A DNA stretch of 63,357 nucleotides, taken from assembly GCA_041659985.1 (NCBI GenBank), contig JBAZXE010000004.1:1-63357 (forward strand). The letters are read 5' to 3'. The DNA comes from Thermoplasmatota archaeon. Lineage in GTDB: Archaea; Thermoplasmatota; E2; JACPAO01; JAHFTW01. A model generated the notes under the pieces. It saw nothing but the letters and a program-made list of their open reading frames with translations. It did no database searches and had not been told where the DNA came from. Shown here piece by piece: positions 964-25,917 of this stretch; position 1 is the stretch's first letter; the number at the start of each line of letters is the position of its first letter. Made by a program: the position numbers and the translations under genes.

Positions 964-2313
964 TCAATGCTCGTGGCCTCCGCGTTCTTGCAGGATGCGC
1001 ATGGCTTCCGTGGCGCAGTCGGCCGAGGTTGCCATTGCGAACGCGTCAATGCCTTCGAAGCCATCGTACGGCATGCATGCCATGATTCCTCCGGGGTGGA
1101 CGTTGTCGTTGGCTGCGTACTGCGTCATGCCGTCGTGGATGATCCAGATGCCCGGGTTCTCCATTTTGATGACGAAGTCGTAACGTTCACCAGGAGCAAT
1201 AGCCAACGTGTCGGCCCGGTACGGCGAGTCGAGAAGGTAGCCGTCCTTCGCAATGACATTCATCGTGTGGCCATGGGGGTGCCAGGTGTGTAGAAGGTTG
1301 CCGGCATTGATGAGGCGGAACCGCACGGTTTCCCCTTCCCGGGCAGGGAAGACTGGCGTCTCGGGGAACGCCTTGCCGTTGACGAGGAACGTGTTGTACA
1401 GCGGATTGTAGAGCGGATGCGTCTCCGGCCACCATTGCCGCGGCGTCTGCTGGACGGGCGTGGCTCCATGCTGGTGCGCGCGCATGCAGCCGGCTGCGAC
1501 GAGGGCGTTGCTGCGTTCTGGCTCCGGAATATTGGCGAATGCGGTCACCATGGCGGGGCAATACGTGTCCTTGGCTGCTTGTGGCACGGTGGAATTCGCC
1601 GTCTGTCCCGCTTGGGAGACCGCACGGTTCTGGGCGAAGTTGTCCATGAGGAACCGGTAGTAGCATTCGGACTGCGCCTGGTAGTCGGCGCTGGATTCCT
1701 GGCCATTGCCGGCCACCGGTACGGGGTCGAGGTTGCCGTGGACGTGGCAGGAGTCGAATTCGTCCAGGAAGATGACGTAGTCGCGGTCGGCCTTGACGGG
1801 TGGATTCCGCTCCTCGACGATGAGCGCGCCGTACATGCCGAAGTCCGTGTGGTGCGCGGCGTCAACGTGGCAGTGGTACCAGTACGTTCCTGCCTTCAGG
1901 TTGGCGTACGTGTACGTGTGCTCTTGGCCGGATGCGATTGGGTACTGCGTCAGGTAGTCTACGCCGTCCTCCTCCCAGGGAATCAGGCCGCCGTGCAAAT
2001 GGATGGTGTGCGAGAGGGCGTTCGGGTTGGTGACGTGGATGATGACGGTGTCGCCTTCCTTCACGCGGATTTCCGGTCCCGGGATGGCCTGCGGGTCATC
2101 GGGGTTCGCCTTGAACGTGATGGCCACGGCGCGTTGCTCGGAGAGGTCGTTCCGCGGGTAGAGGGCCACGGTTCCGCTGGAGCCGGCTTCGACGAAGAGG
2201 TCGAACTCATGCGTCTGGGGTTTCCATGTGGCCGCGTCATCGCCTGAGAAGCAACCGCCCAGCGAGATGACGACGGCCATGACACCCAAAGCCATTGCGA
2301 AAGGACTGTTCAT
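964..2313 (-). CDS. Two-domain multicopper oxidase, lipoprotein (type-1 Cu site in N-terminal domain only; type-C-like)
   Basis: ORF 964..2358. Likely start is ATG 2313 (MNSPFAMALGVMAVVISLGGC lipobox). Domain 1 has HTIHLHG and WYHCHVDAAHHTDFGM. Domain 2 has HTWHPHGH but IWIIHDG where HCH is expected. ATG 2313..2311 overlaps TGA 2312..2310 of the upstream gene (ATGA). Confidence 0.85.
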   Translation of the reverse strand: MNSPFAMALGVMAVVISLGGCFSGDDAATWKPQTHEFDLFVEAGSSGTVALYPRNDLSEQRAVAITFKANPDDPQAIPGPEIRVKEGDTVIIHVTNPNALSHTIHLHGGLIPWEEDGVDYLTQYPIASGQEHTYTYANLKAGTYWYHCHVDAAHHTDFGMYGALIVEERNPPVKADRDYVIFLDEFDSCHVHGNLDPVPVAGNGQESSADYQAQSECYYRFLMDNFAQNRAVSQAGQTANSTVPQAAKDTYCPAMVTAFANIPEPERSNALVAAGCMRAHQHGATPVQQTPRQWWPETHPLYNPLYNTFLVNGKAFPETPVFPAREGETVRFRLINAGNLLHTWHPHGHTMNVIAKDGYLLDSPYRADTLAIAPGERYDFVIKMENPGIWIIHDGMTQYAANDNVHPGGIMACMPYDGFEGIDAFAMATSADCATEAMRILQERGGHEH

Positions 2314-3461
2314 GGAGTTCCGCCTCGCATCGAGATCCAATCTTGGTCGAACGCCCACGCGAGGTGTTCCTCGTCGTCCGCGGATGGCAAAGATTCGGCC
2401 AGGTAGGCTTCCATAGCGTCGGCGGGGAGCGTCTGTCCATGGGCCGTGACGCAGGAGTTGACGTGGTTTCCGACGCGGCGGTGGAATCGAAGGTCAGGCG
2501 CATACAATGGGACTTGGCCTTTGGCGCGGTGCCGATTCAGTTCCTCGAGGATGCTTTGGACCTCGGCTGCGTAGAGGCTGCGGTTGTGCTCGTTGAGGGC
2601 TTGCCGGTTGGCCTCAGCTGGGTTCGTTACCTCGTCGAAGCGGCCCTTCAGGCCCCATTCGTAGGCCCAAGCCGCGGTGCTGCTGCTTTCCTTGCCGAAG
2701 CAATCGTAGGCAGCGCTCACCCACCAGTTGACGTACTTCTGCAGGATGGGCGTCGGAATCACGCCGGCTTGCACAATCCGTTTCAGGCCGGTGACGCCGG
2801 TGCCGAGGTGAAAGGCCTCCTCCTTGAGCATCGGCCCCATGCTGGCCGCGATTGGCCAGAACGCGCATTGGTGTAGCATGGCCAATTGATACTTGCCGTC
2901 GCGGTCCATGAAGGCCGTGAAGCAGAACAGGTCCACCCAGTGGCGCACCTGGTCGTTGAAGGCCTTCAGCAAGCGCGTCCCTTTGGTGGCCCGCCTCTCG
3001 AGCAAACCGGCGGCCTCCTGCCGGCCGGCGTCGCCAAAGTTCGTGGTCAGGATGTGTGCCATCTGGAGCCCGTGCCGCATCTCCTCCGCGTTGATGCGAA
3101 CCAGGGACTTGGCATCGTAGTCGCTGGGCGCCACGTCCAGGAGATGGCGTTGCTGCTCGACGCTGGCGAATTCGGTGTCGCCCTGGACGCGGAGCAAGTC
3201 CAGCAACGCGTCCCGGATTGGTTGCTGGGGCACGTCGCGGACGCTGCGCCATTTCAGCTGTCCTTTGAAGGCGCCGAAGCCGATGGTCGGCGCGGCCGAC
3301 TCGTCGTACTTGGGAACCATCAGAAAATCGCCGAGGCGGTCTACTGGGTAGCGAATGTCGGCTTGCCAATCGGCCAGCAGTCCTTCCCAGTTGGCGAAGG
3401 CTTCGTAGCCAGCCATGCGGTTCATGCCCGTTCTCAGGATGTACGCCCCATAGCCGCCCAC
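2310..3461 (-). CDS. BoxB-like diiron oxygenase (benzoyl-CoA 2,3-epoxidase subunit B family)
   Basis: 383-aa ORF. Blocks QGDTEFASVEQQRHLL, RINAEEMRHG, FMDRDGKYQLAML, MLKEEAFHLGTG, ILQKYVNWW and GLKGRFDE match, from memory, the conserved blocks of BoxB of Azoarcus/Aromatoleum. The N-terminus is shorter than BoxB. Start is uncertain (GTG 3461, ATG 3425 or ATG 3416). Confidence 0.7.
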   Translation of the reverse strand: MGGYGAYILRTGMNRMAGYEAFANWEGLLADWQADIRYPVDRLGDFLMVPKYDESAAPTIGFGAFKGQLKWRSVRDVPQQPIRDALLDLLRVQGDTEFASVEQQRHLLDVAPSDYDAKSLVRINAEEMRHGLQMAHILTTNFGDAGRQEAAGLLERRATKGTRLLKAFNDQVRHWVDLFCFTAFMDRDGKYQLAMLHQCAFWPIAASMGPMLKEEAFHLGTGVTGLKRIVQAGVIPTPILQKYVNWWVSAAYDCFGKESSSTAAWAYEWGLKGRFDEVTNPAEANRQALNEHNRSLYAAEVQSILEELNRHRAKGQVPLYAPDLRFHRRVGNHVNSCVTAHGQTLPADAMEAYLAESLPSADDEEHLAWAFDQDWISMRGGTP

Positions 3462-3476
3462 CCCGACCTATCGGGG
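3461..3476. promoter_or_regulatory. 16-nt palindromic motif CCCCGACCTATCGGGG, copy A
   Basis: Arms CCCCGA and TCGGGG are inverted around CCTA. An identical 16-mer is at 5622..5637. Sits in the divergent intergenic region between the BoxB-like gene and the HTH_10 regulator. A partial inverted copy CCGATAGGT is at 3536..3544. Confidence 0.5.
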
Positions 3477-3551
3477 CCCCTCAGGGAGGAGTGATTCTCA
3501 TGCGTGGGAATCGAGGCAAAGTGTTTCCTCCCCAGCCGATAGGTAGTCGTC

Positions 3552-4184
3552 ATGGCTTGGCGCACCGCCACCGTCATCCTGGAAAAGGCGAGCTGCCCCG
3601 CGGTGGCTGCCCTTGGGCCGGGGTCACGGCTACAATGCGCACGCCAAGGTGCCGGCAGCCCACCCGTTGGCTGGCTCGAGGGCAAGGCCCCGGCTGGCTG
3701 GAAGACCATCGCGCAAGGCCAAGGAGGCCGCCTCGCCACCAACCCGTCCCTTGCGTGCTCGCAATGCCCGCTGGCCAAGGCCCTGTCCGGGCTGGTTGTC
3801 TCCGACACGCTAGTGCGCGACGCTGGCGTTTTCGTTCGTTTTCTGTACGAGGATCCGGAATCCCTGCAGAACGCATTGCAGGATCTCGCCTCCGCCGGCC
3901 AGGGGCCGCGGCTGCAAGGATGCAGCAACGGCGGCCTGCGTGGCCATCCTGCATCGGCACCCCAAGCCTTGACGGCGCGGCAGGAGGAATGTCTGCGCCT
4001 TGCCCAGCAGCTTGGCTACTTCGACGCCGACCGCCGAGCCTCCGTGCGTGATCTGGCCGACGCCATGGGTTGCCATGCGGCGACCGCGCACGAGCACCTA
4101 CGCAAGGCCGTCCAGAAGGCGGTCGCCGCCTGCGCCCCCGTCCCAACGCGAGCCACGCAAGCTGCCGACGGACTCGCCGCTTGA
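3552..4184 (+). CDS. HTH_10 (bacterio-opsin-activator-type) transcriptional regulator
   Basis: C-terminal LTARQEECLRLAQQLGYFDADRRASVRDLADAMGCHAATAHEHLRKAVQK is the archaeal HTH_10 DNA-binding domain. Divergent from the BoxB-like/MCO pair. The N-terminal start is uncertain. Confidence 0.7.
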   Translation: MAWRTATVILEKASCPAVAALGPGSRLQCARQGAGSPPVGWLEGKAPAGWKTIAQGQGGRLATNPSLACSQCPLAKALSGLVVSDTLVRDAGVFVRFLYEDPESLQNALQDLASAGQGPRLQGCSNGGLRGHPASAPQALTARQEECLRLAQQLGYFDADRRASVRDLADAMGCHAATAHEHLRKAVQKAVAACAPVPTRATQAADGLAA

Positions 4185-4245
4185 GCGAGGCCCTGGGTGC
4201 CTTCGACTCCGCCTTGGCATGGGCAGAGCACGGGGGGTCGCAGGT

Positions 4246-4770
4246 TCACTCGATAACGAGGGTGGCCTTCATGCCTTCTTCGAAGTGCCCTGGGACGAAG
4301 CAGCCAATTTCCCAGGTTCCCTTCAACTCGTCCGGGAACGTGGCGCGAATCCAGACCTGGCCGCCTGGTCCGATTTCGATTTCAGCCAAACCTCGTTCGG
4401 TGGCGACCTCCGTCTTCGCCGGTTGGTACACGAAGACGTCAGCAGCCACGTCTTCGAACAGGAGCTCCTCGAAGCCATGCGGCATGCCATCTTCGTTGGC
4501 GACGGTTCGACCGAACATGATCTCGTGCAAGACTGCGCCATCGTTTTGGACATGGATGCCGATGGTCTTTCCAGCATTGATGTGGAATGCGCCACCGTGG
4601 ACCCCGGACGCGTCTGCAAGGAAGTCGTCGCCCATGGTGATGAAGACGGTTTGTTCGACGCGGCTTGGCTGGGGGGCCAAGGTTGAATCGGCAGCATCTG
4701 GCGATTGCGTGCATCCGCTAAAGAAGGCCGTGAAAACGAGCGAGGCGACAACAAGGAGTTGCTTGGCCAT
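4246..4770 (-). CDS. Cupredoxin-fold type-1 copper protein, lipoprotein
   Basis: MAKQLLVVASLVFTAFFSGC lipobox. His in VLHEIMFG and C-terminal GCFVPGHFEEGM (Cys-x4-His-x4-Met) give a blue-copper ligand set. Confidence 0.85.
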   Translation of the reverse strand: MAKQLLVVASLVFTAFFSGCTQSPDAADSTLAPQPSRVEQTVFITMGDDFLADASGVHGGAFHINAGKTIGIHVQNDGAVLHEIMFGRTVANEDGMPHGFEELLFEDVAADVFVYQPAKTEVATERGLAEIEIGPGGQVWIRATFPDELKGTWEIGCFVPGHFEEGMKATLVIE

Positions 4771-4883
4771 GAGCCGACAAACGGCTGGGGTCTCCTAGTT
4801 CTATCGCCTCGCCGCGACCGGTGCACGACTGGACTGGCTGCAACCGCCCCTTAACCCACCTCTGTCCGCGTGGTGAGTGAAGG

Positions 4884-5177
4884 TCACTTGGGTTTGTAGG
4901 TCCAAACCGAGTAAACCAGGACAGCGAAGCCGGCGAGGGTGAATAGGCCCTCAATGATGTGCGCTTGATCCAGGGAGAGGCCCAGCGCCTGGAAGGCCAA
5001 CCCCTCCGCAACTGCAGCGATGGTCATCAGGACGACCGCGATGAACAGGACCAAGATGCCACGGTTCGGTTGCCGCCGGTAGGCGCGCCACGTGATGCCA
5101 AGGAACACGGCGCCCAAGGCGACGGTGATAATCTTGATGATGCTTAGGAGCAGGATTGGGTCCGTTGGGTCCGCCAT
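4884..5177 (-). CDS. Small integral membrane protein (3 TM) co-transcribed with the ArsR-type regulator
   Basis: 97 aa and hydrophobic (ILLLSIIKIITVALGAVFLGI, ILVLFIAVVLMTIAAVA, LFTLAGFAVLVYSVW). Starts 3 nt after the stop of 5181..5537. Confidence 0.65.
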   Translation of the reverse strand: MADPTDPILLLSIIKIITVALGAVFLGITWRAYRRQPNRGILVLFIAVVLMTIAAVAEGLAFQALGLSLDQAHIIEGLFTLAGFAVLVYSVWTYKPK

Positions 5178-5180
5178 TGT

Positions 5181-5537
5181 CTAGCCTCGCAAGGAATTCC
5201 ACATGTGTTGGAGTCGTTCGTCCAGGGATGAATTGAGGTCCCACGTCACGCGCAAGCCGTCCGCGTCCATTTCAATTCGGCACGACTTGAGCGTCGAGCG
5301 GTACAGGTCGTATGGCTTGCCGTCGTGGGTCATGGCGCTGCGTTCGACGTAGAGCAGGCCGTCTTCCACGAGGCCATTGACGTGGCGGTAGGCCGACGGC
5401 AGGGGGATGCCGGTCTTGTCGCTCAGGTCCTTGACGGAGTGCGCTTTCAGGATACAGTGGGACATGATGTGCCGGGCGGACTCCGAGTTGAGGGCCGCCA
5501 CGACCTTCTCCTCCCGGACTTGGACCACCCGCACCAT
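5181..5537 (-). CDS. ArsR-family winged-helix transcriptional regulator
   Basis: 118 aa. HSVKDLSDKTGIPLPSAYRHVNGLVEDGLLYV is a typical wHTH recognition region. Confidence 0.8.
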   Translation of the reverse strand: MVRVVQVREEKVVAALNSESARHIMSHCILKAHSVKDLSDKTGIPLPSAYRHVNGLVEDGLLYVERSAMTHDGKPYDLYRSTLKSCRIEMDADGLRVTWDLNSSLDERLQHMWNSLRG

Positions 5538-5621
5538 GATGATTGGCGCTGCTCATCCTCTGAGATGAGAATAACCCATCCATGCGCTAGTCGTCCTGCT
5601 TAACTGAACCGTGACCCCGGG

Positions 5622-5637
5622 CCCCGACCTATCGGGG
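5622..5637. promoter_or_regulatory. 16-nt palindromic motif CCCCGACCTATCGGGG, copy B
   Basis: Identical to 3461..3476. Lies in the divergent region between arsR (start 5537) and the membrane protein (ATG 5674). A CTTAAC box is at 5599..5604. Confidence 0.5.
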
Positions 5638-5673
5638 CCGCACCTCAAGTCATGCAACGCTGAAGCAGCGGCA

Positions 5674-6471
5674 ATGCGGATGCTCCTCGCCGTGCTCGCC
5701 GCAGGAATCTTGGTTGGCCTTGCATCCCTGCTGGCCACCCGCGCTGCTACGGCGTGGGCTGGATTCTTGGCCGCGGCCCCCATCACGCCAACGCTGGCTG
5801 TCCTGGGCTCAACGGCGCTCCAGCCTCAGGATTTGCTGAATGGTCTCCCGATCGTTGCGGGTGCGACCGGGGCGATGGCCGTGGCCCTTCTTCTACAACG
5901 CAAGCGGTGGATGCCGACTCCAGCCCTCGTCATCCTTGTAGGCATTCCACTCCTATTGCCGATGGCCAAAAATGTTCCATCCGGCGTGCTGTTCATCGCG
6001 GTCGCCGCGGTCTGCCTCAGCCTCGACGTCGCGCTACCGATTGCGCCCCCGGGGGCCCGGGCCCGGCGATTTCCTTGGTACGCTTCGGGGATTCTGGGCG
6101 GCCTAGCCTTCGCGGCGATTCTGGCAGCCGCTTCTGCCGTGCCAGCCATCGCGCCTTTGGTCGCGATGTACCCGGCCCTCCTGGTGATCTCGTTGGCAGC
6201 CATTCGCTTCGGCGCAGGGCCCGATGCCGCCTTGCGAGTATGCCGTGCGGCCTTGGGAGCCAACGTCGCGGTGGCCACTTTCGCGGCCACACCCGCGCTA
6301 TTCCCCCGAGTTTCCTCGGCGATTTCACTTGTGCTGGCCTGGATGGTCTTTGCCCTCGTTGCCGGAGTGTGGCCCCTCCTGGTCCGTTCCCTTCGTATGC
6401 AAATCCCGCCCGCTGCGACTCCAAGCCCCGCACCATGCCCGAACCCACCCTGTGTCGATTCTCGCCTCTGA
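5674..6471 (+). CDS. Polytopic membrane protein, unknown function
   Basis: Ala/Leu-rich hydrophobic ORF (listed as 5611..6471). Start taken at ATG 5674 (MRMLLAVLAAGILVGL). Support is weaker than for its neighbours because several long alternative frames exist here. Confidence 0.55.
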   Translation: MRMLLAVLAAGILVGLASLLATRAATAWAGFLAAAPITPTLAVLGSTALQPQDLLNGLPIVAGATGAMAVALLLQRKRWMPTPALVILVGIPLLLPMAKNVPSGVLFIAVAAVCLSLDVALPIAPPGARARRFPWYASGILGGLAFAAILAAASAVPAIAPLVAMYPALLVISLAAIRFGAGPDAALRVCRAALGANVAVATFAATPALFPRVSSAISLVLAWMVFALVAGVWPLLVRSLRMQIPPAATPSPAPCPNPPCVDSRL

Positions 6472-6530
6472 GAATCACGCCCGAAAACCGGCCCCACGTT
6501 CTATGGATGACTCCTGCCTCACCGGAAACC

Positions 6531-6950
6531 ATGCCTCAACTCCGCGGCACCGCGACGCTGGCACTCGGACTGACTTTCCTCCTGCTTGCAGGCTGTTCCG
6601 CAGCCCCCGCCGAATCAGCGGAGGGGGGAGATTCCGATGACGCTTCCGACAGCCAACAAATCGTCATGCAGAACATGGCCTTCAGTCCGAAATCCATGAC
6701 CGTCCACGTTGGCGAAGCCGTCACCTGGGTCAACCAGGACTCGATGGGCCACACCGTCAGTGCCGACGACCCCGACCAGTGGGGCACCCCTGGATCTGGC
6801 GACAACTCGGCGGACTGGATGATGAAGGGCGACTCGTGGAGCCACACCTTCACCGAGCCGGGCACCTACCACTACTACTGCAAGCCGCACGCCTCCGGCT
6901 CCATGGGCAACCGCATGGGAATGGTCGGCACCGTTATCGTGGAGGCCTAG
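6531..6950 (+). CDS. Plastocyanin/halocyanin-like blue copper protein, lipoprotein
   Basis: C-terminal part of listed ORF 5754..6950. MPQLRGTATLALGLTFLLLAGC lipobox (alternative ATG 6507). Ligands GHTV ... YHYYCKPHASGSMGNRMGMVG (Cys, His, Met). Confidence 0.85.
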   Translation: MPQLRGTATLALGLTFLLLAGCSAAPAESAEGGDSDDASDSQQIVMQNMAFSPKSMTVHVGEAVTWVNQDSMGHTVSADDPDQWGTPGSGDNSADWMMKGDSWSHTFTEPGTYHYYCKPHASGSMGNRMGMVGTVIVEA

Positions 6951-6953
6951 ACG

Positions 6954-7961
6954 ATGGCTGAAGGCGCAAGCCAAAGTGGAGTCCCGGGCCGCCGCATGAT
7001 GGCCGTCGTGGCCGCCATTGCGTTCGCTGTCGGCGCCTTCGCGCCTGGCATCATCAAGGGAGTCGTCGAGGACGATTCCTGGAGCGCGCAGGCCGCAACT
7101 GGCCCCCAAGTGCGCGAATTCAACCTTGACATCAAGGCCGCCGACATCGACATGGGCGAAGGCACCGTTTGGCATGCTTGGACCTTCAACGGCACCGTCC
7201 CAGGCCCGACTCTGACGGCCAACGTCGGGGACATTATCCGCGTCACCGTCAAGAACAAGATGGACCTCATGCACAGCTTCCACACCCACCTCTCGCCCTA
7301 TGGGCTGGAGAGCGACGGGTCGCAGCTCAACATCATCACCGGCACCGGTTACATGGCCATGATTCACCCCGGTGACTCGTACACCTATGAGTTCCAGGCC
7401 ACCATCCCCGGCCTGTTCTACTACCACTGCCACAGCGCAGACGGCGACCACACCATCAGCGAACACATGGCGCAGGGCCTCTACGGTGCCATCATCATCA
7501 AGGGACCCGAAGAAGTCCCTGTTCGCGACGTGCCCCTGTTCATGGCAGAGCGCGGCTTCGATGCCAGCGATGGCGCCCCGTACTACATCATGAACGGCCA
7601 CGGATTGCCCGGCGGCGAACACAAGCTCGAAGAGATCTTCGCTGAAGGCGGCGTCGACGCCGTCGTCGCCCAGTTCGGTAAGACGCTGCCCGTCATCACA
7701 GGCAAAGTCGGCGAACCCGTCCGGCTCAGCGTCGTCAACATCGGCGATATGATCCACTCCTTCCACATGCACGCCATGACCGCGTACTACGTGGACCACG
7801 ACAAGGGCGACCCGGTCCCGGCCCAAGTCCTCGGCTTAATCCCCGGTGAAGCGGACCGCATCCTCATCACGCCCACCGAGCCCGGCGTCTGGCTCTTCCA
7901 CTGCCACGTCGTCAGCCACGCCGACGCAGGAATGATTGGCGTCTTCGTCGTGGAGGCCTAA
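6954..7961 (+). CDS. Two-domain multicopper oxidase with HCH/type-1 motifs in both domains (type-A-like), twin-arginine leader
   Basis: GRRMMAVVAAIAFAVGA leader. Domain 1 has HSFHTH and YYHCHSADGDHTISEHMAQGL. Domain 2 has HSFHMH and LFHCHVVSHADAGM. Starts 3 nt after the cupredoxin stop. Confidence 0.9.
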   Translation: MAEGASQSGVPGRRMMAVVAAIAFAVGAFAPGIIKGVVEDDSWSAQAATGPQVREFNLDIKAADIDMGEGTVWHAWTFNGTVPGPTLTANVGDIIRVTVKNKMDLMHSFHTHLSPYGLESDGSQLNIITGTGYMAMIHPGDSYTYEFQATIPGLFYYHCHSADGDHTISEHMAQGLYGAIIIKGPEEVPVRDVPLFMAERGFDASDGAPYYIMNGHGLPGGEHKLEEIFAEGGVDAVVAQFGKTLPVITGKVGEPVRLSVVNIGDMIHSFHMHAMTAYYVDHDKGDPVPAQVLGLIPGEADRILITPTEPGVWLFHCHVVSHADAGMIGVFVVEA

Positions 7962-8168: not shown

Positions 8169-8216
8169 GACCCGTCCCCCTTCCCCACTTCTCCTCTCTT
8201 TCCTGCTTGGTGTTCC

Positions 8217-9836
8217 ATGGTTGCCCGCCCCTTCGTCCTGCTTGCCGCCCTGACCGCCCTTCTGGCTGCTTCGCTGTCAGGCTGTTTCGGCGCCGAGTCG
8301 GAGGCCTTCGTGCCCGGAACGAATTACAAAGAAACCGGCCACATCGTCCACCTCAAGGCAACCGTCGTCGACCTTGCCGGCCAGGAAATCTATCCAGGCT
8401 TCAAGGCGAACCTCTGGGCGTACTGCTTCGCCCCCGTCGACCCCACCGACACGTACTCCGCCAACGCCATCGAAGCCCGCGAACCCCTCGCTGGCGACAT
8501 TGTCCCGGCGGGTTGGGAGCGTGGCCAATGTGGCGTCCCGGGGCCGACCCTGCGCGTCAAGCAGGGGGACCACGTGAAGGTCGAGTTCAGCAACTCCCAC
8601 TTCCACCCGCACACCATCCACTGGCACGGCCAATTCGTGCCCTGGGAATCGGACGGCGTACCCGGCGGCACACAGGACACCGTCGCTTCAGGCGGCTCGT
8701 TCACCTACGACTTCATCGCCAAACGCGCCGGAACCCTGTGGTACCACTGCCACGTCGACACCCAACTGCACGTCATGCAAGGCCTGTACGGCGTCATCAT
8801 CGTCGAACCCCAAGACGACCGCTGGGAACCCGAGGATGTCGACCACGATGAGACCATTGTCATCAGCAGTCTCCGCCGCGAACTGGTGGAAGCGATTCCA
8901 GGTGTCGGATTGCACAACCACCCCGCCGGCTGCGCCTCCGGGTTCGTGGGTTGCGAGAACCCCGCCGTCAAGGTCCAACCGGACGTGTTCCTGCTCAACG
9001 GCCACAGCCTTCCCTACACCTTGGATGACCCAGCCACGATGCTGCACCTGAAGGAAGGTGAACGCATGCGGCTCCGCTTCGTCAACGCCGGCACCACCGT
9101 GGAGGAGATGCACCCCCATGGCCACGACATGCTCGTGACGCACAAGGACGGCAACCCCATCCCGCCCAACCAGCGTCTCTGGGTGGACACTCTCATCATC
9201 GGCCCCGGCGAACGCTACGATGTCATCATCGAGGGCAACAATCCAGGTATCTGGGCGTTCCACACCCACGTCACCGACCATGAGACCAACTGCTGGAAGG
9301 CTCCCGGCGGCATGCACACCATGCTGGTTTACGACGGCTTCGAGGACCAGATGGGGGCCTTCCGGGGTGAAGCCCTGGCGACTTGCGCGTACCAATCCGG
9401 ACTCGTCCTGCCCGGCGACTTCGCGGACTCTGCGACGTTCGACTTCGGCGCCGTCACGCCCGCCGAACCCGTGGTGCAGTCGTGGGGCTTCCCCGTGACG
9501 TTGGCGTGCGCCGTGCGTAAACTCGACGCCCGCGCCCGCCTCGAGACCATGGCCACCACTGCAGCCTTCAACGACCTCCAGGTCACCATCCGGGACCCGG
9601 AAGGTGCCGATGCCGCTACCTTCGCTTTGGGCGAGGCCCGCAACGCGACTTACGCCTTGGAGGGCAGCGGATTGTCCGACCTGCGGCAAGGCAACTACAC
9701 GCTCGCGGTCACGGCCAACCAGGCATTGGAAGCCACGGTGGAGCTCTCGGTTGCCATCGACTACTACGAGACCTTCGAACAGAGCCGGACCGCCCACCTC
9801 GTCAACAAGGTGGGGGGATGTCCGGGATACACATGA
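8217..9836 (+). CDS. Two-domain multicopper oxidase with C-terminal extension, lipoprotein (type-C-like; paralog of 964..2313)
   Basis: LLAASLSGC lipobox. Domain 1 has HTIHWHG and WYHCHVDTQLHVMQGL. Domain 2 has MHPHGH and FHTHV (Cys replaced by Thr). An extra C-terminal region of about 150 aa follows. Confidence 0.9.
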   Translation: MVARPFVLLAALTALLAASLSGCFGAESEAFVPGTNYKETGHIVHLKATVVDLAGQEIYPGFKANLWAYCFAPVDPTDTYSANAIEAREPLAGDIVPAGWERGQCGVPGPTLRVKQGDHVKVEFSNSHFHPHTIHWHGQFVPWESDGVPGGTQDTVASGGSFTYDFIAKRAGTLWYHCHVDTQLHVMQGLYGVIIVEPQDDRWEPEDVDHDETIVISSLRRELVEAIPGVGLHNHPAGCASGFVGCENPAVKVQPDVFLLNGHSLPYTLDDPATMLHLKEGERMRLRFVNAGTTVEEMHPHGHDMLVTHKDGNPIPPNQRLWVDTLIIGPGERYDVIIEGNNPGIWAFHTHVTDHETNCWKAPGGMHTMLVYDGFEDQMGAFRGEALATCAYQSGLVLPGDFADSATFDFGAVTPAEPVVQSWGFPVTLACAVRKLDARARLETMATTAAFNDLQVTIRDPEGADAATFALGEARNATYALEGSGLSDLRQGNYTLAVTANQALEATVELSVAIDYYETFEQSRTAHLVNKVGGCPGYT

Positions 9837-9851
9837 CTGGGGAGAGACTCG

Positions 9852-10526
9852 ATGGACGACGACCCTGCAGCATCCGCTAATCCCCGAAACCCGGATTCCT
9901 TGACTATCCGGGAGCGACGCGCAAGGAACGCGAAGGCGCAGGCACGAAAGCAACTCCCCAAAGAATTGGTGCGCAGGTCGATGATACCAGCAATCGTCAT
10001 CTTGATTCTGGGCGCCATTGCTCTCGGACTGAACTTCAAGTCCACTGGCACGGAGGACTGCCCCGGCCACTGGCATGCTGCATTCGCCATCTTCGTCAAC
10101 GATGCACGGTTGAACTACTCAGAGCCCGAGCAGCACCCGGTCGCCTACGGGGCGGCCGGCCACGACCACCACCTCCATGGCGACGACGGCATCTACCATT
10201 TCCACCCACCCGTCGAACGCTGCATTCCCGTCCGCGCCATGCTCGAGCGGCTCGACGTAGGCATCGACGGAGATTCCTTGCTTGTCGGATCGACGCACGG
10301 CCCACTGGCCGGAACCTACAACGCAACCGCAGACGCAACGCTGCAGATTTGGCATCAGCCCTACGGCGGCGCTTGGGAGATTGCGGCTTGGCCCAAAATC
10401 AAGGAACTCCAGCTGGGCGACGGCGATCGCATCCTGTTCACGTACGGTGACCAGAATCCAGCGACCCTTGAGGCCCAGAAGAATTCCATGAAGGACTTGG
10501 GGACCTACGACCCCGGAGATGTCTAG
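9852..10526 (+). CDS. Membrane-anchored histidine-cluster protein, putative metal binding
   Basis: 224 aa. Basic N-tail, one TM (MIPAIVILILGAIALGL), then CPGHWHAAFAIFVND ... GHDHHLHGDDGIYHFHPP. Confidence 0.7.
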   Translation: MDDDPAASANPRNPDSLTIRERRARNAKAQARKQLPKELVRRSMIPAIVILILGAIALGLNFKSTGTEDCPGHWHAAFAIFVNDARLNYSEPEQHPVAYGAAGHDHHLHGDDGIYHFHPPVERCIPVRAMLERLDVGIDGDSLLVGSTHGPLAGTYNATADATLQIWHQPYGGAWEIAAWPKIKELQLGDGDRILFTYGDQNPATLEAQKNSMKDLGTYDPGDV

Positions 10527-10983
10527 CGAGCGTGAGACAATGAAGGACGAAACCCGACGCATGTTCCGCCGCCGCCCCGACCCGGTGCGCGTCATTGTGG
10601 CCAAGGCCCGCATCGACGGCGGCGTCGCCATCGAGCCCAACGCGCCGAAGCAGGTCAAAGTCGCTCCCGGCCAAGCCTTGGAGCTCGCCTTCCCCTACAG
10701 TTTGCGGGAAGCCAGCCCAGACCGCGAGGCCTACTCGCTTCGGCTCTCATCCCACATCGGCGTCATGGCCGTTCCCCCTGACGAGAAACGGTGGGGCGAC
10801 CGCTGGGGCTGGCCAGAGGCCCTCGACGGATTCCTACTGCAACGCTACCACCTTGAGCGCGGCCGGCACGAGTTGGCGTACACGACCGAAGCCAGCTACC
10901 GCGTCACGCCGTGGAGGGGCAATGGCCCAGGCATTCCTCAAACCAAGCGGCTTGACGGAACCATTGAGGTGATCTGCAAGTGA
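10519..10983 (+). CDS. Hypothetical protein in the copper operon
   Basis: 154 aa. Its start overlaps the upstream stop by 8 nt and its stop overlaps the next start by 4 nt (GTGA). I recognise no motif. Confidence 0.55.
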   Translation: MSSERETMKDETRRMFRRRPDPVRVIVAKARIDGGVAIEPNAPKQVKVAPGQALELAFPYSLREASPDREAYSLRLSSHIGVMAVPPDEKRWGDRWGWPEALDGFLLQRYHLERGRHELAYTTEASYRVTPWRGNGPGIPQTKRLDGTIEVICK

Positions 10984-11261
10984 GCCTCATCCCAATCCTG
11001 ATTGCCTGCACCATGGGCCTCGCCGCGGGCGTCGGCGTCATCGGAAACGAAGTCACCCACGGAGCATGGTCAGAATCCATGGGCCTGGGCCACCACCACC
11101 TAGCCGACTACGGCGGATACCATTGCGCCGCCCACGAATCACAGGCGCACATGCAACACATGCACAACGGAACGTTCACCGATCACCAGCATTGTCCGGG
11201 TGGAGTGCACATGCATGGCGATGGCCACCGTCACAACCACGGCGGTATGCACGATGCGTAA
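10980..11261 (+). CDS. Membrane-anchored His/Met/Cys-rich small protein (cassette copy 1)
   Basis: 93 aa, N-terminal TM, then NEVTHG..MGLGHHHLADYGGYHCAAH..QHMHNGT..HQHCPGGVHMH. Paralog of 25410..25694. Confidence 0.7.
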   Translation: MSLIPILIACTMGLAAGVGVIGNEVTHGAWSESMGLGHHHLADYGGYHCAAHESQAHMQHMHNGTFTDHQHCPGGVHMHGDGHRHNHGGMHDA

Positions 11262-11433
11262 GCATCTGCCAATCCTCTGGATGTGCAGCGGATTCTTGGC
11301 GCTGATGCTCACCCTCAGCTTCACCGGAAACGGAACCCTTGGAACCGGAGTTCCCGTCTGGTTATCCGTGACGCTGGCGCTAACGGCGGTGGCCGTAGGC
11401 ATTTGGGCAGCGGCGCGAGCTACCCATGCCTAG
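11254..11433 (+). CDS. Small two-TM membrane protein (cassette copy 1)
   Basis: In-frame ATG 11254 within listed ORF 11200..11433 (MRKHLPILWMCSGFLALMLTLSFTGNGT...). 8-nt overlap (ATGCGTAA) with the upstream gene. Shares the SFTGNGT and IWAA motifs with 25687..25917. Confidence 0.6.
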   Translation: MRKHLPILWMCSGFLALMLTLSFTGNGTLGTGVPVWLSVTLALTAVAVGIWAAARATHA

Positions 11434-12019: not shown

Positions 12020-13441
12020 CTAGCGGAACGTTGCTCCTTCGATGCGCAGAACGCCCCGGAACGTCGAGACGCCACTGTCGATGTGGACCCCATGAAGGCC
12101 TGCGGCCACGTCGCACTTCGCGTCCAGCAGCCAGGTGCCACTGGTGGAGACTCCGATGAGGGCAACGAACGTTCCCTTGGCGTCGCACTTGCCTGGTCCC
12201 TCCAGCACGAGTTCGCGACTGCCGCCGTTGTAGAGGCCTAGCCAGACTTTCAGTGACCCGCCCTTGGATGCCACGGTGAAGTCATACCCGCTGCCGGGCG
12301 TCACGATGATTTCGCGTTCGTCCCTTTGCCCCGCGCTAGACCCTTCGGCCATGGTGGTTCGTTGGAGGCCAGGCGAGAAGGGGACGGGGTGCATGGGCTC
12401 ATGGCGGTACGCCGTGGCCGTGATGGTGTAGGTGGCGCCCTCTACGGTGCGGGCGGGGCTGCTCGGGCCCGTCACCAAGAAGCCCCATAGGCTCCGCTTG
12501 GCGTATGGACCGTCGCCGTTGCCTTCCACCGCGATGCGGTAGATGCGTTCCGAGTCGCTGGATTCGGCGGGCTCCACAATGCGCAGGGCACGTGTGTCGC
12601 CGGCATGGTACTGGAACTGTAGGCCGTTGGGCAGTTCCTGTGATGTCACGACGCGGATCTCCACGTAAGCAGCATCGGTGGGAACAATGGCGCCGTCCAT
12701 GGGCACGTGCTCGACGGGGCAGTTGAAGGCCATCATCGGGAATGGCTGGCACCCACCAAAGGGCTCGAGCCAAAGGTCGTAGATTGCCTGATCCTCTTCG
12801 ATCAAGAGGATTTCGTTGGTTCCGTTCCATTGGTCCGGGTGTCCGGGGTACAATGGAATGGGGCGTCCGCGTTCCGCCTCCACAATCAATCGCATCGTGC
12901 CTTTGAATCGCTCGAAGCCGTCCTCGCCGGTGCCAAGCACAACGAACCTCCAACTGGAGACGACTTGGTGGGGAAGGTCGTTGTCGACGTCTTCGGCGGG
13001 CAGCTCGACTTTGCCGTCCTGGAAGGCGACAGGGTCCGAGAGGTTGGTCGAGGCGGCCGTGCTGTAGCGGACGGACAGGTCGCCGACGCGGTCACCGGGG
13101 GCGGCTGCGTACTCGAGAGCCAAGTGGACCTGGGCGGTGCCTTGCGGGACAACGCTTCCGTCGGGCGGGAGGAATTCTGCCATCCAGACCATGTTGTCGC
13201 CATTGATGGTCAGTTCGTGCCGGCCTTGCCAGGTTTCATCGAGGATGCCAATGCGGTCTCGTCCGCCCCAGTAGTCATGGACGTGCGGGCGGGCCAACGC
13301 GTTGCTCTCGTTGAGGTACGTGTAGTCGCCAGGAGAGGTCACCAGAATTGGATCGTCCGCAGCGGCCTGTTCGTCGGACGGGCCAGCGCAGCCCGCAAGG
13401 AGCAGGATTGCCAAAGCGGCCAGGGTGCGGGTGGGATTCAT
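12020..13441 (-). CDS. Secreted lipoprotein, unknown function
   Basis: MNPTRTLAALAILLLAGC lipobox, 473 aa. Its ATG 13441..13439 overlaps the TGA 13440..13438 of the upstream regulator gene (ATGA). Confidence 0.75.
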   Translation of the reverse strand: MNPTRTLAALAILLLAGCAGPSDEQAAADDPILVTSPGDYTYLNESNALARPHVHDYWGGRDRIGILDETWQGRHELTINGDNMVWMAEFLPPDGSVVPQGTAQVHLALEYAAAPGDRVGDLSVRYSTAASTNLSDPVAFQDGKVELPAEDVDNDLPHQVVSSWRFVVLGTGEDGFERFKGTMRLIVEAERGRPIPLYPGHPDQWNGTNEILLIEEDQAIYDLWLEPFGGCQPFPMMAFNCPVEHVPMDGAIVPTDAAYVEIRVVTSQELPNGLQFQYHAGDTRALRIVEPAESSDSERIYRIAVEGNGDGPYAKRSLWGFLVTGPSSPARTVEGATYTITATAYRHEPMHPVPFSPGLQRTTMAEGSSAGQRDEREIIVTPGSGYDFTVASKGGSLKVWLGLYNGGSRELVLEGPGKCDAKGTFVALIGVSTSGTWLLDAKCDVAAGLHGVHIDSGVSTFRGVLRIEGATFR

Positions 13442-18167: not shown

Positions 18168-19415
18168 CTACGGCGCCATCGGAGGGGTCTCCTCCTTGGG
18201 CCCCATCTCGTCGCCGGGGACTTGCGGGAGCCGATGCGTGGCGGTGGGTCCGAAGTACAATTCGAACATCCACTCCAATTTTCCGGACAAGGCGCTCCAG
18301 TACATGCGGTTGAAGGCCTTCTTCATGGCGTACTTGATGATGGTCGGCTTGTTTTCTTCGGGCGGCTGCTCGTACGTGGCGGAGACGAACAGCAGGCGGT
18401 GATCGCCGACCTCCATGGGGCAGTTGATGCGACCATTGTAGGCCCAATCGCCGAAGTCCCGGCCGAGGTCTGCCAAGACGTTCTTGGCCACGACGAGAGA
18501 CTGCAGGTGCGCCACGACGCCGGATTTGCTGATGGGGATGTTCGTGCAGTCCCCCAAGGCATACGTTCCGGGCTGCCCCGTGACCCGCATCGTCTGCTTG
18601 TCGGTGGGGACCCAGCCCTCCTTGTCTCCGAGGCCGGAGTCGGCGATGAGGCGCGCGCCGCGGTGGGGCGGCACGACGATGGCCAAGTCGCAGGCGACCT
18701 CATCGCCTTCCAGGGACACGAGGGCGCCGGGCTTGGCTTCCCCGATACTGAAGAAGGTCCCCAACTCGATGCCGAGTTTCTTGAAGCGCTCCTCGACTTG
18801 GTGCGAGACCTTCTCGGCGGGGTAGGCTCTGGGATACGGGGTCAGGAGCGTGATGCGGGTCTTGTCGCGCAACCCCCGCTTGCGCAGCAGCTCATCCAGC
18901 AGGAAACAGGCCTCGTTGGGACTGGGCGGGCACTTGTAGGGGAACTCCGCGATGGCCACCGCGATGTGGCCGCCGCGGAAGTCCTGCAACCGCTCCCAGA
19001 TGCGCTGGGCCACCTTGGGGCCAAGGTGGAAGGACAATGTGTGCTCGGCCAAACCAGGGATGAGGTCCTGCCGAGCCTCCGCGCCGGTGGCAAGGATGAG
19101 GTGGTCGTAGGCGAGCGTTTGGCCGTCCGTCAAGACGACGGTGCGTTCGGTCGTGTCGATGCGCGCGGCCCCGGAATCGATGAACCGCACCTGCTTCTCC
19201 AACAAGGGGCGCTCCGCGTGAAGGAACCGCGCGGGGGAAACGCCGCGGAACGCGACGTCGAGATTGCCCGGCTGGAAGCAGTGCTGGGCCGAGTCGCCCA
19301 CGACGGTCAAGGTGATGGCGTCGCTGGCTAGGTCCTGCTTGAGTTCTCGCGCCAGGAGGTTGGCGGTCATCGTCCCGCCGGTGCCGGCACCAATCACGAC
19401 GATGCGATGGCCCAT
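18168..19415 (-). CDS. sqr: Sulfide:quinone oxidoreductase-like flavoprotein
   Basis: IVVIGAGTGGT FAD fold, FPYKCPPSPNE and LGDCTNIP cysteine motifs, 415 aa. Follows tusA by 1 nt. Confidence 0.8.
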   Translation of the reverse strand: MGHRIVVIGAGTGGTMTANLLARELKQDLASDAITLTVVGDSAQHCFQPGNLDVAFRGVSPARFLHAERPLLEKQVRFIDSGAARIDTTERTVVLTDGQTLAYDHLILATGAEARQDLIPGLAEHTLSFHLGPKVAQRIWERLQDFRGGHIAVAIAEFPYKCPPSPNEACFLLDELLRKRGLRDKTRITLLTPYPRAYPAEKVSHQVEERFKKLGIELGTFFSIGEAKPGALVSLEGDEVACDLAIVVPPHRGARLIADSGLGDKEGWVPTDKQTMRVTGQPGTYALGDCTNIPISKSGVVAHLQSLVVAKNVLADLGRDFGDWAYNGRINCPMEVGDHRLLFVSATYEQPPEENKPTIIKYAMKKAFNRMYWSALSGKLEWMFELYFGPTATHRLPQVPGDEMGPKEETPPMAP

Positions 19416-19416
19416 G

Positions 19417-19647
19417 CTACGCCTTCTTGGTGACTTTGACGAGGATCTTGAGCACGTTGCCGTCTTGGTTCACGGAGACGAGCTGGTTGCCGGTCTTTTT
19501 GCACCAAGCCGTGACGTCAGGCTTGGCTGCGGGATCGGTGGCCCACAGCTCGAGCTCGTCGCCTTGCTTGGCGGAGCGATAGGCCTTGAACAGGTCAGTC
19601 AGCGGTCCGGGGCAGAAAGCGCCGCGGCTGTCAATCGTGGTTGGCAT
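19417..19647 (-). CDS. tusA: TusA/SirA-family sulfur carrier
   Basis: 76 aa with the GAFCPGPL (CPxP) active-site motif. Confidence 0.85.
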   Translation of the reverse strand: MPTTIDSRGAFCPGPLTDLFKAYRSAKQGDELELWATDPAAKPDVTAWCKKTGNQLVSVNQDGNVLKILVKVTKKA

Positions 19648-19658
19648 CGTGAGTCACC

Positions 19659-20159
19659 TCAAATGAAAATGATCTGTCCGCCTTCGCTCATGCCGAGGAA
19701 GCTGGCGGCCCCGACGACGTCCTCGACCTCGGGGATGAAGTCTTCTTCCGTTAGGCCCAGCATCTCCATGCTCGTCGAGCAGGCGTGCAAATGGACGCCG
19801 AGGTCCTTGGCGCTGGCAATCATTTCGGGGATCGGTGGAATCTTCAGTTTCTTGATCTTCCCGCGCAGCATCGCGGTCATCATGGGCGTAGCCCCGGGAA
19901 GGATGCCCGCAAGGTTCGGCATGTGGGCGGCGGGGTTCCCCACGGGCGTCGCTTTCAGGCGGCCGTAGCGCTTCTTGGTGATGACATCCATGCCCCAGAA
20001 CGTGAAGAACAGGTGCACTTCGTAGCCCATGATGGCCGCGGCGTTGCCCAGGATGAACGGCGGATAGGCCATGTCCAGGCTGCCTTTCGACACGATGATG
20101 CTCAACTTGTGGACCGGCGGTCCGGCCATGGCCATCGAAGCTGGTTTCTTTGCCGCCAT
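19659..20159 (-). CDS. DsrE/DsrF-like sulfur-relay protein
   Basis: KLSIIVSKGSLDMAYPPFILGNAAAIMGYEVHLFFTFWG ... HLHACSTSMEM. Start taken at ATG 20159 (alternative ATG 20135). The GTG at 20189 overlaps the promoter box. Confidence 0.8.
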   Translation of the reverse strand: MAAKKPASMAMAGPPVHKLSIIVSKGSLDMAYPPFILGNAAAIMGYEVHLFFTFWGMDVITKKRYGRLKATPVGNPAAHMPNLAGILPGATPMMTAMLRGKIKKLKIPPIPEMIASAKDLGVHLHACSTSMEMLGLTEEDFIPEVEDVVGAASFLGMSEGGQIIFI

Positions 20160-20188
20160 TGAATCACAAGTCATTGTGCAAGCCGACA

Positions 20189-20194
20189 CTTAAG
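20189..20194 (-). promoter_or_regulatory. TATA-like box CTTAAG for the dsrE-tusA-sqr operon
   Basis: Centre is about 32 nt upstream of ATG 20159. Same hexamer as at 20312, 24518 and 47114. Confidence 0.45.
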
Positions 20195-20311
20195 CCTGCC
20201 CGGCTGGATTTCACGTCTCGATCCTTCGGGGGCCGACGCGGCGGGCCAGCGACCGCATCCGCCCCCGCCCTCGTCCCAGAGTCCGGGGTGCCTCTTGTGC
20301 GCCATGCCGAC

Positions 20312-20317
20312 CTTAAG
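20312..20317 (+). promoter_or_regulatory. TATA-like box CTTAAG for the persulfide dioxygenase operon
   Basis: Centre is 27-28 nt upstream of ATG 20342, which implies a leaderless or near-leaderless mRNA. Confidence 0.5.
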
Positions 20318-20341
20318 TAGCGCTTCGGGGCCTATGGAGGC

Positions 20342-25096: not shown

Positions 25097-25267
25097 TTAC
25101 TTGGCGTACTGCGCCGGGTTGGCAACGAACTTCTGCTTGCAGCCCGCGCTACAGAAGTGGTACGTCTTGCCGGCGTGCTCGGCGGAGCCCGCAGCCGATT
25201 TTGGGTCGACGCTCATGCCGCAGACCGGGTCCTTCCCCTGTTTCTTGCCGAATCCGAACAAGCCCAT
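25097..25267 (-). CDS. YHS/TRASH-domain metal-binding protein
   Basis: DPVCGMSVDPKSAAGSAEHAGKTYHFCSAGCKQKFVANP. Start taken at ATG 25267 (MGLFGFGKKQ). Confidence 0.7.
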   Translation of the reverse strand: MGLFGFGKKQGKDPVCGMSVDPKSAAGSAEHAGKTYHFCSAGCKQKFVANPAQYAK

Positions 25268-25409
25268 GCAAGGGCATCGTGGGCGCATCGGTTAGGTGCT
25301 TCGCTGCAGGCGCTGGCCCCGGTGCCCAGTCGAATCGCGGCCGACGCCCGGCCGGGGGATCTTGTCAAGCCTTATCGTGGGCTAATCAAATGACCCCCCG
25401 GTCCGTCCC

Positions 25410-25694
25410 ATGCTTGCAGCCAACTTGATTGCGGCCCTGGTTGTCGCCGGCGTTGCCGGGGCGGGCACCATGGCCAACGAAGCCATGCACGGTGACCTGG
25501 CCGACGGGATGGGGTTCGGGCACAGCCACATGACCGATTACGATGGGGCCCATTGCGCCAGCCACACTGGCCCGCATGCCCCCCAGCACATGGAACACAT
25601 GCACAATGGCACCATGGTCCCGCACGACAGCTGCGCAGGCGGCGCCGGCATGCACAACAGCGGCACCGCCCGCGGAGGGATGATGCATGGCTGA
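25410..25694 (+). CDS. Membrane-anchored His/Met/Cys-rich small protein (cassette copy 2)
   Basis: 94 aa. [46 protein letters not shown]. Paralog of 10980..11261. The box CTAATCAAA at 25382..25390 lies about 24 nt upstream. Confidence 0.7.
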   Translation: MLAANLIAALVVAGVAGAGTMANEAMHGDLADGMGFGHSHMTDYDGAHCASHTGPHAPQHMEHMHNGTMVPHDSCAGGAGMHNSGTARGGMMHG

Positions 25695-25917
25695 ACAACG
25701 CACGGGCCAAATCATCGCCTGGGTCGCCGCAGGACTCCTTGTTGCCGTCCTTGCCATGAGCTTCACCGGCAACGGCACCTGGATGGGCGGCATCGGGATG
25801 GGCTGGATGATGGCCGTGCCCCTTCTGCTGCTCGCATTGGCGATTTGGGCCGCTTACCGTTATGGCCGCATGGAAGCCAAGGTCGAACAAGCGGAAGGGG
25901 AACGCAGGACCCGCTGA
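25687..25917 (+). CDS. Small two-TM membrane protein (cassette copy 2)
   Basis: 76 aa. 8-nt overlap (ATGGCTGA) with the upstream gene. Carries the MSFTGNGT and IWAA motifs as in 11254..11433. Confidence 0.6.
   Translation: MAEQRTGQIIAWVAAGLLVAVLAMSFTGNGTWMGGIGMGWMMAVPLLLLALAIWAAYRYGRMEAKVEQAEGERRTR

Follow-up and report, generated by a model that had tools for sequence, protein, structure and literature searches.

A lineage-restricted pair of small membrane proteins with a putative role in copper handling in Thermoplasmatota archaea

Two paralogous gene pairs in the window

The DNA analysed here, a 63,357-nucleotide stretch of contig JBAZXE010000004.1 from a Thermoplasmatota archaeon (hereafter the window), carries two copies of a pair of small genes, A and B, which we refer to as A1-B1 and A2-B2 (Table 1). 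A preliminary description of this DNA had located both pairs, and all four open reading frames (ORFs) were confirmed on the forward strand at the coordinates it gave. A1 consists of an N-terminal transmembrane (TM) helix followed by the string NE..HG...E..GLGHHH..D.GG.HC...HM.HMHNGT..H..CPGG..MH, and A2 is its paralogue, with the same architecture and the same invariant residues. Both B proteins are two-TM hairpins. B1 (..ILW..SFTGNGT..IWAA) belongs to a subtype that lacks a Met-rich loop, while B2 comprises a first helix, the loop TGNGTWMGGIGMGWMM, a second helix, and a basic C-terminal tail.

Table 1. Location and main characteristics of the gene pairs and other features in the window.
Feature	Coordinates	Strand	Characteristics
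Third multicopper oxidase	964..2358	-	
Long ORF in another frame	5611..6471	+	Signal-peptide-like start (MRMLLAVLAAGILVGLASLLA, from ~5674)
Cupredoxin-domain ORF	5754..6950	+	First gene of the string; residues 304-397 plastocyanin/azurin-type (PF00127, E=2.2e-16)
Two-domain multicopper oxidase	6954..7961	+	NirK-like architecture; PF07731 (E=7e-29), PF07732 (E=1e-21)
539-aa multicopper oxidase	8217..9836	+	Cu-oxidase_3, Cu-oxidase_2 and Cu-oxidase matches; lipoprotein-like signal (..LSGC)
224-aa protein	9852..10526	+	Basic N-terminal tail, one TM helix, His-rich domain (CPGHWH ... HDHHLHGDDGIYHFH); overlaps next gene by 8 nt
154-aa protein	10519..10983	+	No TM helix; no Pfam match
A1	10980..11261	+	93 aa
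B1	11254..11433	+	59 aa
473-aa predicted lipoprotein	12020..13441	-	..LLAGCAG; no family match
Pyr_redox_2 flavoprotein	18168..19415	-	
DsrE-like protein	19659..20189	-	
Metallo-beta-lactamase and rhodanese fusion	20342..21739	+	
YHS/TRASH-type small metal-binding protein	25097..25288	-	63 aa; PF04945 (E=2.9e-15)
A2	25410..25694	+	94 aa
B2	25687..25917	+	76 aa

The paralogy of the two copies, as well as the sequence motifs assigned to them earlier, stood up to closer comparison. In a BLASTP alignment, A1 and A2 share 35 of 80 residues (44%; E=5e-21), and the proposed A motif is visible both in this alignment and in one of five sequences. B1 and B2 are identical at 12 of 22 positions across the first helix and the SFTGNGT motif (E=2e-7), and both contain IWAA; these similarities are far above chance. 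Profile hidden Markov models of the two families score A1 at E=2.9e-32, A2 at E=1.1e-35, and B1 at E=5.6e-24. The G+C content at third codon positions (GC3) of the four ORFs, 0.69-0.82 in a window of 65.7% G+C, resembles that of the long window ORFs with matches to known families.

Despite their similarity, the copies did not arise by a recent, tandem-type duplication, since each is nearer to a copy in another organism than to its counterpart in the window. The nearest relatives of copy 1 were found in L017 (A 72% and B 58% identical; L numbers denote the other loci fetched for comparison), whereas those of copy 2 lie in L019 for A (60%) and in L016 for B (55%). Judged by these affinities, the two window copies are different old subtypes.

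Direct reading of the sequence further verified that the ATG of B overlaps the stop codon of A by 8 nt in both copies (ATGCGTAA at 11254..11261 and ATGGCTGA at 25687..25694). A1 itself starts with GTG and has a 4-nt overlap (GTGA) with the stop codon of the preceding gene. Such overlaps between stop and start codons point to coupled translation, which would help the two proteins to be made in matched amounts. Many loci also have a GGAGG/GGGAGG-like purine run 5-10 nt upstream of the B start. In the window, it is seen in copy 2 (25669..25686, GGAGGGATGATGCATGG), while copy 1 has only a weaker G-rich stretch (11236..11253). Because this run lies inside the codons of the C-terminal GGM of A, the apparent conservation of that tail may partly reflect a ribosome-binding site for B.

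The A and B families and their linkage

A word-indexed search of 5.8 billion proteins returned 45 A clusters (68-117 aa), none of them with a Pfam domain, and only 38 A proteins at E<=1e-3 were recovered when 1.84 billion representatives were scanned exhaustively with HMMER. As all the HMMER matches are 57-143 aa long, the A domain is never fused to anything larger in this set. Six of the seven genome records that match A are metagenome-assembled genomes of Thermoplasmatota or Thermoplasmatales, and the seventh is labelled Methanobacteriota. Eleven residues are invariant across the 45 A sequences (N23, E24, G28, G35, H38, H40, D43, H48, C49, H63, and C75), all of which are present in A1 and A2; H27, G37, G46, H60, M64, H65, H72, and H82 are nearly so. 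In the most distant members, the conserved core is reduced to the segment after the TM helix, NE..HG...E..G.GHHH..D.GG.HC. The ectodomain contains on average 12.1 His, 6.6 Met, 2.0 Cys, 8.3 Asp+Glu, and 1.5 Lys+Arg per 71 residues, and the A helix features small-xxx-small motifs. In an AlphaFold2 model of A2 (pLDDT 71.8), residues 4-25 form a confident helix, the other helices are short and have low to medium confidence, and the remainder is coil.

Members of the B family share a conserved Trp in the first helix, the motif S(F/L)TG(N)GT, and an uncharged Gly/Met/Trp loop, which has the sequence MGGxGMGWMM or FGWGFMMxMMW in most members and often carries NGT. The loop leads into the second helix, and the protein ends in a basic tail. 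Consistently, the AlphaFold2 model of B2 (pLDDT 68) features two helices, at residues 3-26 and 39-75; together with the single N-terminal helix modelled for A, this hairpin agrees with the membrane association originally proposed for the pair.

Profile searches, which the preliminary description had recommended as a check for already defined families, covered Pfam and NCBIfam for the four window proteins and for 45 A members, and found none above threshold. With Pfam-A membership defined by a score at or above the gathering threshold of the family, neither A1 nor A2 had any match at E<=1 in the 2025 copy. No Pfam-A family was matched by more than two of the 45 A members (best E=0.078), and none of these matches was to Ctr. 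For B1 and B2, the Pfam search gave only sub-threshold matches to assorted TM domains of unknown function (DUF5518, 20.5 bits versus 27). The sole named family to give A any score was CopL_fam (NCBIfam NF033807), which resembles A in that its members are small Cys/His-rich proteins encoded upstream of copAB-type multicopper oxidase (MCO) genes. However, A is not a member, as A2 reached 12.5 bits against a whole-protein cutoff of 40 (E=0.17), and only two of the 45 A members matched weakly (best E=0.097).

Searches of PDB sequences with the A and B profiles gave chance matches only (E>=0.08), and a Foldseek search of the PDB with the A2 model returned 0 matches, a weak negative at a model pLDDT of only 71.8. 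The few records that carry a source-given name call the protein hypothetical, and small A- or B-like proteins are not mentioned in the available part of the Ca. Angelarchaeales paper (PMC9038741). The pair is thus indeed undescribed: A-B belong to no known family and constitute a lineage-restricted two-protein family of their own. Both window copies have its characteristic features, namely an A protein with a TM helix ending in NE, the segment HG...E..G.GHHH..D.GG.HC, a His/Met tail and a second Cys, and directly downstream a hairpin gene that starts within a few nucleotides of the A stop codon.

Homologous pairs recur in other loci, so that the lack of such pairs, which the preliminary description had named as grounds for refutation, does not apply. 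Their gene order is strictly conserved, as the two window copies had suggested. B lies directly downstream of A at all 23 sites whose downstream sequence is available (both window copies, L001, L004-L007, L009-L020, two pairs in L021, L022, which is cut by the contig end, and L024). Included in this count are two reverse look-ups, from the B proteins P0081 and P0090, each of which found an A gene just upstream. Relative to the end of the A stop codon, the B start is located 11, 8, 4, 1, or 0 nt upstream or 4 nt downstream. A metagenome scan for further contexts added only three short loci. The sole exception to the pairing is a solo A-like gene (74 aa) without a following B, which lies downstream of a canonical pair in L013 (4306..4530; ~0.7 kb) and L015 (4553..4759; ~2 kb) and retains NE..H...E..GLGHHH..HC.

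Distances among the A proteins correlate with those among their B partners (Mantel r=0.73, permutation p=2e-4), and ratios of nonsynonymous to synonymous substitution rates (dN/dS) range from 0.03 to 0.48 for both genes in 10 pairwise comparisons; values below 0.5 support coding. By these measures, A and B are real genes under purifying selection and are inherited as a unit. The opposing idea that the small ORFs are unexpressed chance ORFs in high-GC DNA is scarcely credible. It could draw on the fact that public runs containing the window hold DNA only, but it is contradicted by conservation at the protein level in more than 40 clusters, dN/dS values well below 1, conserved start-stop coupling, and gene-like GC3.

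Genomic context, membrane topology and candidate role

Copy 1 forms the end of a tightly packed forward-strand gene string that starts at position 5754, and the last four genes of the string overlap by 8, 4, and 8 nt. A1-B1 come last after cupredoxin and MCO genes (Table 1), in line with the initial view that this copy closes a copper operon. The 539-aa MCO of the string is probably attached to the membrane on its outer side, and its lipobox-type signal implies that its copper loading would be extracytoplasmic, as has been described for the periplasmic loading of CueO (PMC7558416). Close homologues of this MCO adjoin A-B in L006, L013, and L017. Homologues of the 154-aa protein encoded just upstream of A1 are likewise found near A-B, in L001 (4509..4961, E=6e-11) and L017 (7682..8215, E=1.2e-18). 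Copy 2 was correctly described as a neighbour of a YHS/TRASH gene, which is divergent from A2-B2 across a spacer of 121 bp. A comparison of the region upstream of the copy 1 string (5538..5760) with this spacer for a shared regulatory motif gave one common 8-mer and no shared palindrome.

MCO and cupredoxin genes are also the commonest, though not the exclusive, recognisable neighbours of A-B in other loci. MCO genes lie within 8 kb at eight loci (window copy 1, L001, L006, L009, L010, L013, L017, and L021). L001 repeats the order seen in the window, with a cupredoxin, a two-domain MCO, an MCO, a gene for a homologue of the 154-aa protein, two membrane proteins, A, and B. It additionally encodes a MacB/FtsX ATP-binding cassette pair, a CopA-type ATPase with heavy-metal-binding (HMBD) and YHS domains, and an Lrp-TRASH regulator. 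In L017, A-B directly follow an MCO gene, and two A-B pairs in L021 (5001..5547 and 8172..8689) bracket cupredoxin and MCO genes. L021 thus represents a second metagenome-assembled genome that, like the window, has two pairs, in this case within a single locus. These contexts support the link to copper put forward in the preliminary description.

Other genes without a known family also recur near A-B. A conserved pair of multi-TM membrane proteins (~197 and ~117 aa) without a Pfam family adjoins A-B in three independent loci, L001 (5038..5987), L021 (4006..5004), and L018 (1785..2845), pointing to a membrane module of four genes in some of the genomes. A small lipoprotein recurs in L013-L015 and L006.

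The distribution of charges provides an indication of how both proteins are oriented in the membrane. In A, about two uncharged residues precede the TM helix, a hydrophobic stretch of ~20 residues, and the 20 residues that follow it contain on average 2.1 acidic and 0.15 basic residues. In B, the loop is almost uncharged, and the C-terminal tail averages 3.4 Lys/Arg. Under the positive-inside rule, this pattern argues that the A domain and the B loop face outward. Furthermore, an N-x-S/T sequon is present in 57 of 86 A ectodomains, compared with 16.7 expected upon shuffling of the same residues, and clusters 18-24 residues past the invariant HC, just after HMH. As conservation of a glycosylation sequon is meaningful only for an extracellular domain, this finding also points to an outward A domain. 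We rejected the reading of A as a secreted protein with a signal peptide, since cleavage is unlikely: NE is often preceded by V, M, or L, residues incompatible with signal peptidase, the n-region is not basic, and the A2 model has the N-terminal segment as one long helix.

We propose, with a probability of about 0.5, that A-B form a membrane-tethered copper-binding module on the outer face of the membrane, acting as a chaperone or buffer. In this model, A and B would be the two subunits of a small membrane complex found in a few Thermoplasmatota lineages. A would use its single N-terminal TM anchor to display an acidic His/Met/Cys domain of ~70 aa on the outer membrane face. B would be a helical hairpin with both termini inside, placing its Gly/Met/Trp loop (TGNGTWMGGxGMGWMM) at the same surface, next to the juxtamembrane motif NE..HG...E..G.GHHH..D.GG.HC of A. 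Together, the two proteins would bind a metal of the soft or borderline class, copper being the likeliest, and the variable His/Met tail of A would add capacity. They could hold copper near the surface to load lipoprotein MCOs and cupredoxins that fold outside, or to shield the membrane from excess copper.

Copper is favoured by the mixed His/Met/Cys ligands, the oxidising compartment, and the neighbouring MCOs and cupredoxins, which would be loaded outside. Metal binding itself is suggested by the conserved ligand-rich residues and the gene neighbourhood only; contact between A and B, copper specificity, and a chaperone or buffer role are likewise inferred. The original proposal of a membrane-associated pair that handles a metal, probably copper, is supported in every part that could be checked, its metal part being argued from ligands and neighbourhood.

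Close functional parallels are PcoE and SilE, small His/Met-rich proteins of copper-resistance or MCO operons with a presumed role as extracytoplasmic first-line buffers that bind Cu(I)/Ag(I) (PMC7558416). The composition of A would fit the multiple His/Met motifs of this group. However, PcoE and SilE are soluble after cleavage of their signal peptide, lack Cys, and have no obligate membrane partner, whereas A is TM-anchored, has two invariant Cys residues, always occurs with B, and shows no sequence relationship to them. The role of A-B would be comparable, by analogy, to that of PcoE/SilE or CopC-type proteins, but in anchored form.

Several observations weigh against the proposed role. Some pairs have other neighbours: the pair in L005 lies between rpl11 and ATP-synt_D, that in L016 beside MgtC and a type-II P-type ATPase, that in L020 beside a cation diffusion facilitator (CDF) transporter, and that in L004 just downstream of two phage-integrase-family genes (2684..5366), a copy that may reside on a mobile element. 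The Met motif is missing from the B1/L017 subtype and from L009, and the AlphaFold2 models are of modest confidence for both A2 and B2. The outward topology is argued from the positive-inside rule and sequon enrichment only, and public sequencing runs holding the window are groundwater metagenome DNA, with no RNA. Finally, His-rich sequences also bind Ni, Zn, and Co.

This last point leads to an alternative in which A-B handle Ni, Co, or Zn, or serve as a general divalent-metal buffer or sensor, with the copper genes nearby reflecting metal-island clustering. GHHH and the His-rich tails do resemble Ni/Zn-binding sequences, CDF and MgtC/P-type ATPase neighbours exist, and several copies have no copper gene nearby. 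Nevertheless, MCO and cupredoxin genes are by far the commonest recognisable neighbours, and Met-rich motifs such as HMxHMH and MGGxGMGWMM typify the Cu(I)/Ag(I) sites of oxidising compartments, with PcoE/SilE as an example (PMC7558416). We thus consider another metal unlikely; given the CDF, MgtC/P-type ATPase, and housekeeping neighbours, copper specificity is likely rather than established.

A could, alternatively, face the cytoplasm as a membrane-tethered metallochaperone that feeds exporters, with B as a scaffold. Single-TM precedents are CupA of Streptococcus and PacL1 of Mycobacterium, in which an N-terminal TM anchor carries a small metal-binding domain that concentrates metal at the membrane (PMC7558416; PMC9374683). 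Like A, these proteins are encoded beside metal-handling genes. Exporters are found near some A-B copies (the CopA-type ATPase in L001, the CDF transporter in L020, and the P-type ATPase in L016), and the two conserved Cys residues would remain reduced in the cytoplasm.

However, the charge distribution of A favours an N-in/C-out orientation, the enrichment of N-x-S/T at a fixed position is hard to explain in the cytoplasm, and the basic C-terminal tail of B places the Met-rich loop across the membrane from the cytoplasm. Moreover, extracytoplasmic MCOs are more frequent neighbours than any others, exporters included. CupA and PacL1 face the cytoplasm and serve P1B-ATPases, whereas A probably faces outside and is mainly linked to MCOs. 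They also differ in their domains: CupA folds into a cupredoxin-like beta-barrel that houses a binuclear Cu site, and PacL1 combines Gln/Ala repeats with a short C-terminal motif, while A, with a domain of ~70 aa, is predicted to be helical or irregular, the A2 model containing helices and coil only. On balance, a cytoplasmic chaperone appears rather improbable.

Equally doubtful, if not slightly more so, is the idea that A-B are small accessory or anchor subunits of membrane oxidoreductases, either docking lipoprotein MCOs or connecting the quinone pool, via an adjacent DoxX-like protein, with a copper site or a pair of redox-active Cys residues. A model for the docking variant is the Bacillus Mnx MCO complex, in which MnxE and MnxF are small, MCO-co-encoded, copper-binding accessory subunits of MnxG without known wider homologues. 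The direct adjacency of MCO, A, and B in L017 would fit such a function, as would the two invariant Cys residues of A. A gene for a DoxX-like membrane protein lies directly upstream of A in L009 (7540..7998), L010 (7345..7998), and L012 (6502..7071) and one gene away in L007 (5835..6407), which hints at a quinone- or redox-linked partner. The DoxX Pfam score, however, is 18 bits, below the 23.6 cutoff, and pairs without an MCO or DoxX gene nearby exist (window copy 2, L005, L016, and L020). Moreover, A has no conserved redox motif such as CxxC, and MnxE and MnxF are soluble and always found with MnxG, unlike the membrane-bound A-B, some copies of which have no MCO gene nearby.

More remote still is a split channel in which A and B jointly move Cu(I) across the membrane in the manner of Ctr1/COPT, a comparison meant as an analogy only. 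The two proteins would supply three TM helices in sum, an outward His/Met-rich domain, M-G-W-M-M at the outer end of the second B helix in most members, and the small-xxx-small motifs of the A helix; the Ctr1/COPT proteins likewise combine an extracellular Met/His-rich segment with three TM helices and Met at an outer helix end. Yet A-B show no homology to these transporters, whose hallmarks are three TM helices in one chain, MxxxM in TM2, GxxxG in TM3, and a Pfam Ctr match: the helices of A-B are split over two genes, and neither protein matches Pfam Ctr. The Met motif is not invariant, being absent in B1, L017, and L009, and no helix has a conserved ligand deeper in the membrane.

A more ambitious and decidedly speculative version of the outer-face model would make A-B a machine dedicated to delivering copper in the wall-less Thermoplasmatota, or else a split conduit for Cu(I) resembling Ctr, needed to metallate the unusually large set of extracellular blue-copper proteins and MCOs of these lineages. 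If true, it would represent a new, archaea-specific route to the biogenesis of extracytoplasmic cuproproteins, with a joint site made up of NE..HG..GHHH..D..HC of A and the B loop. The metal supply of archaeal extracellular copper enzymes is poorly understood, especially in soil and groundwater Thermoplasmatota. In the available part of a study of these archaea, their genomes are described as enriched in blue-copper proteins and those of Ca. Angelarchaeales in copper monooxygenases, cupredoxins and NirK-like proteins being reported for the latter (PMC9038741).

Strictly conserved, lineage-specific, ligand-rich, and placed at the end of cupredoxin/MCO operons, A-B are a concrete and cheap candidate for this role; the A ectodomain, at only ~70 aa, can be produced and titrated with metals. 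Confirmation would extend the known copper chaperones and buffers by a new family and provide genome annotators with a name for proteins now labelled hypothetical, although with 38 representatives in 1.84 billion proteins its general reach is limited.

Other features of the window

The 224-aa protein encoded upstream of the 154-aa protein in the copy 1 string has no Pfam or NCBIfam family and no homologue among the other fetched loci; its His-rich domain suggests that it may be another uncharacterised metal-binding surface protein. At the start of the string, the cupredoxin-domain ORF overlaps a long ORF in a different frame (Table 1). The signal-peptide-like start lies in the frame of the latter, while the cupredoxin domain is found at the end of the former. 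This arrangement reflects either a frameshift or the presence of two genes, in which case the second would begin well downstream of 5754.

Downstream of copy 1, the gene for a 473-aa predicted lipoprotein is convergent with the A1-B1 string. The surroundings of copy 2 further include genes for OsmC, TFIIB, an aldo/keto reductase, and an HU-type DNA-binding protein, and the window also encodes subunit D of an A-type ATPase and an ammonium transporter. Together with TFIIB and HU, the latter two are in keeping with a Thermoplasmatota genome. A sulfur-related cluster at 18168..21739 comprises the flavoprotein, the DsrE-like protein, and the metallo-beta-lactamase and rhodanese fusion listed in Table 1.

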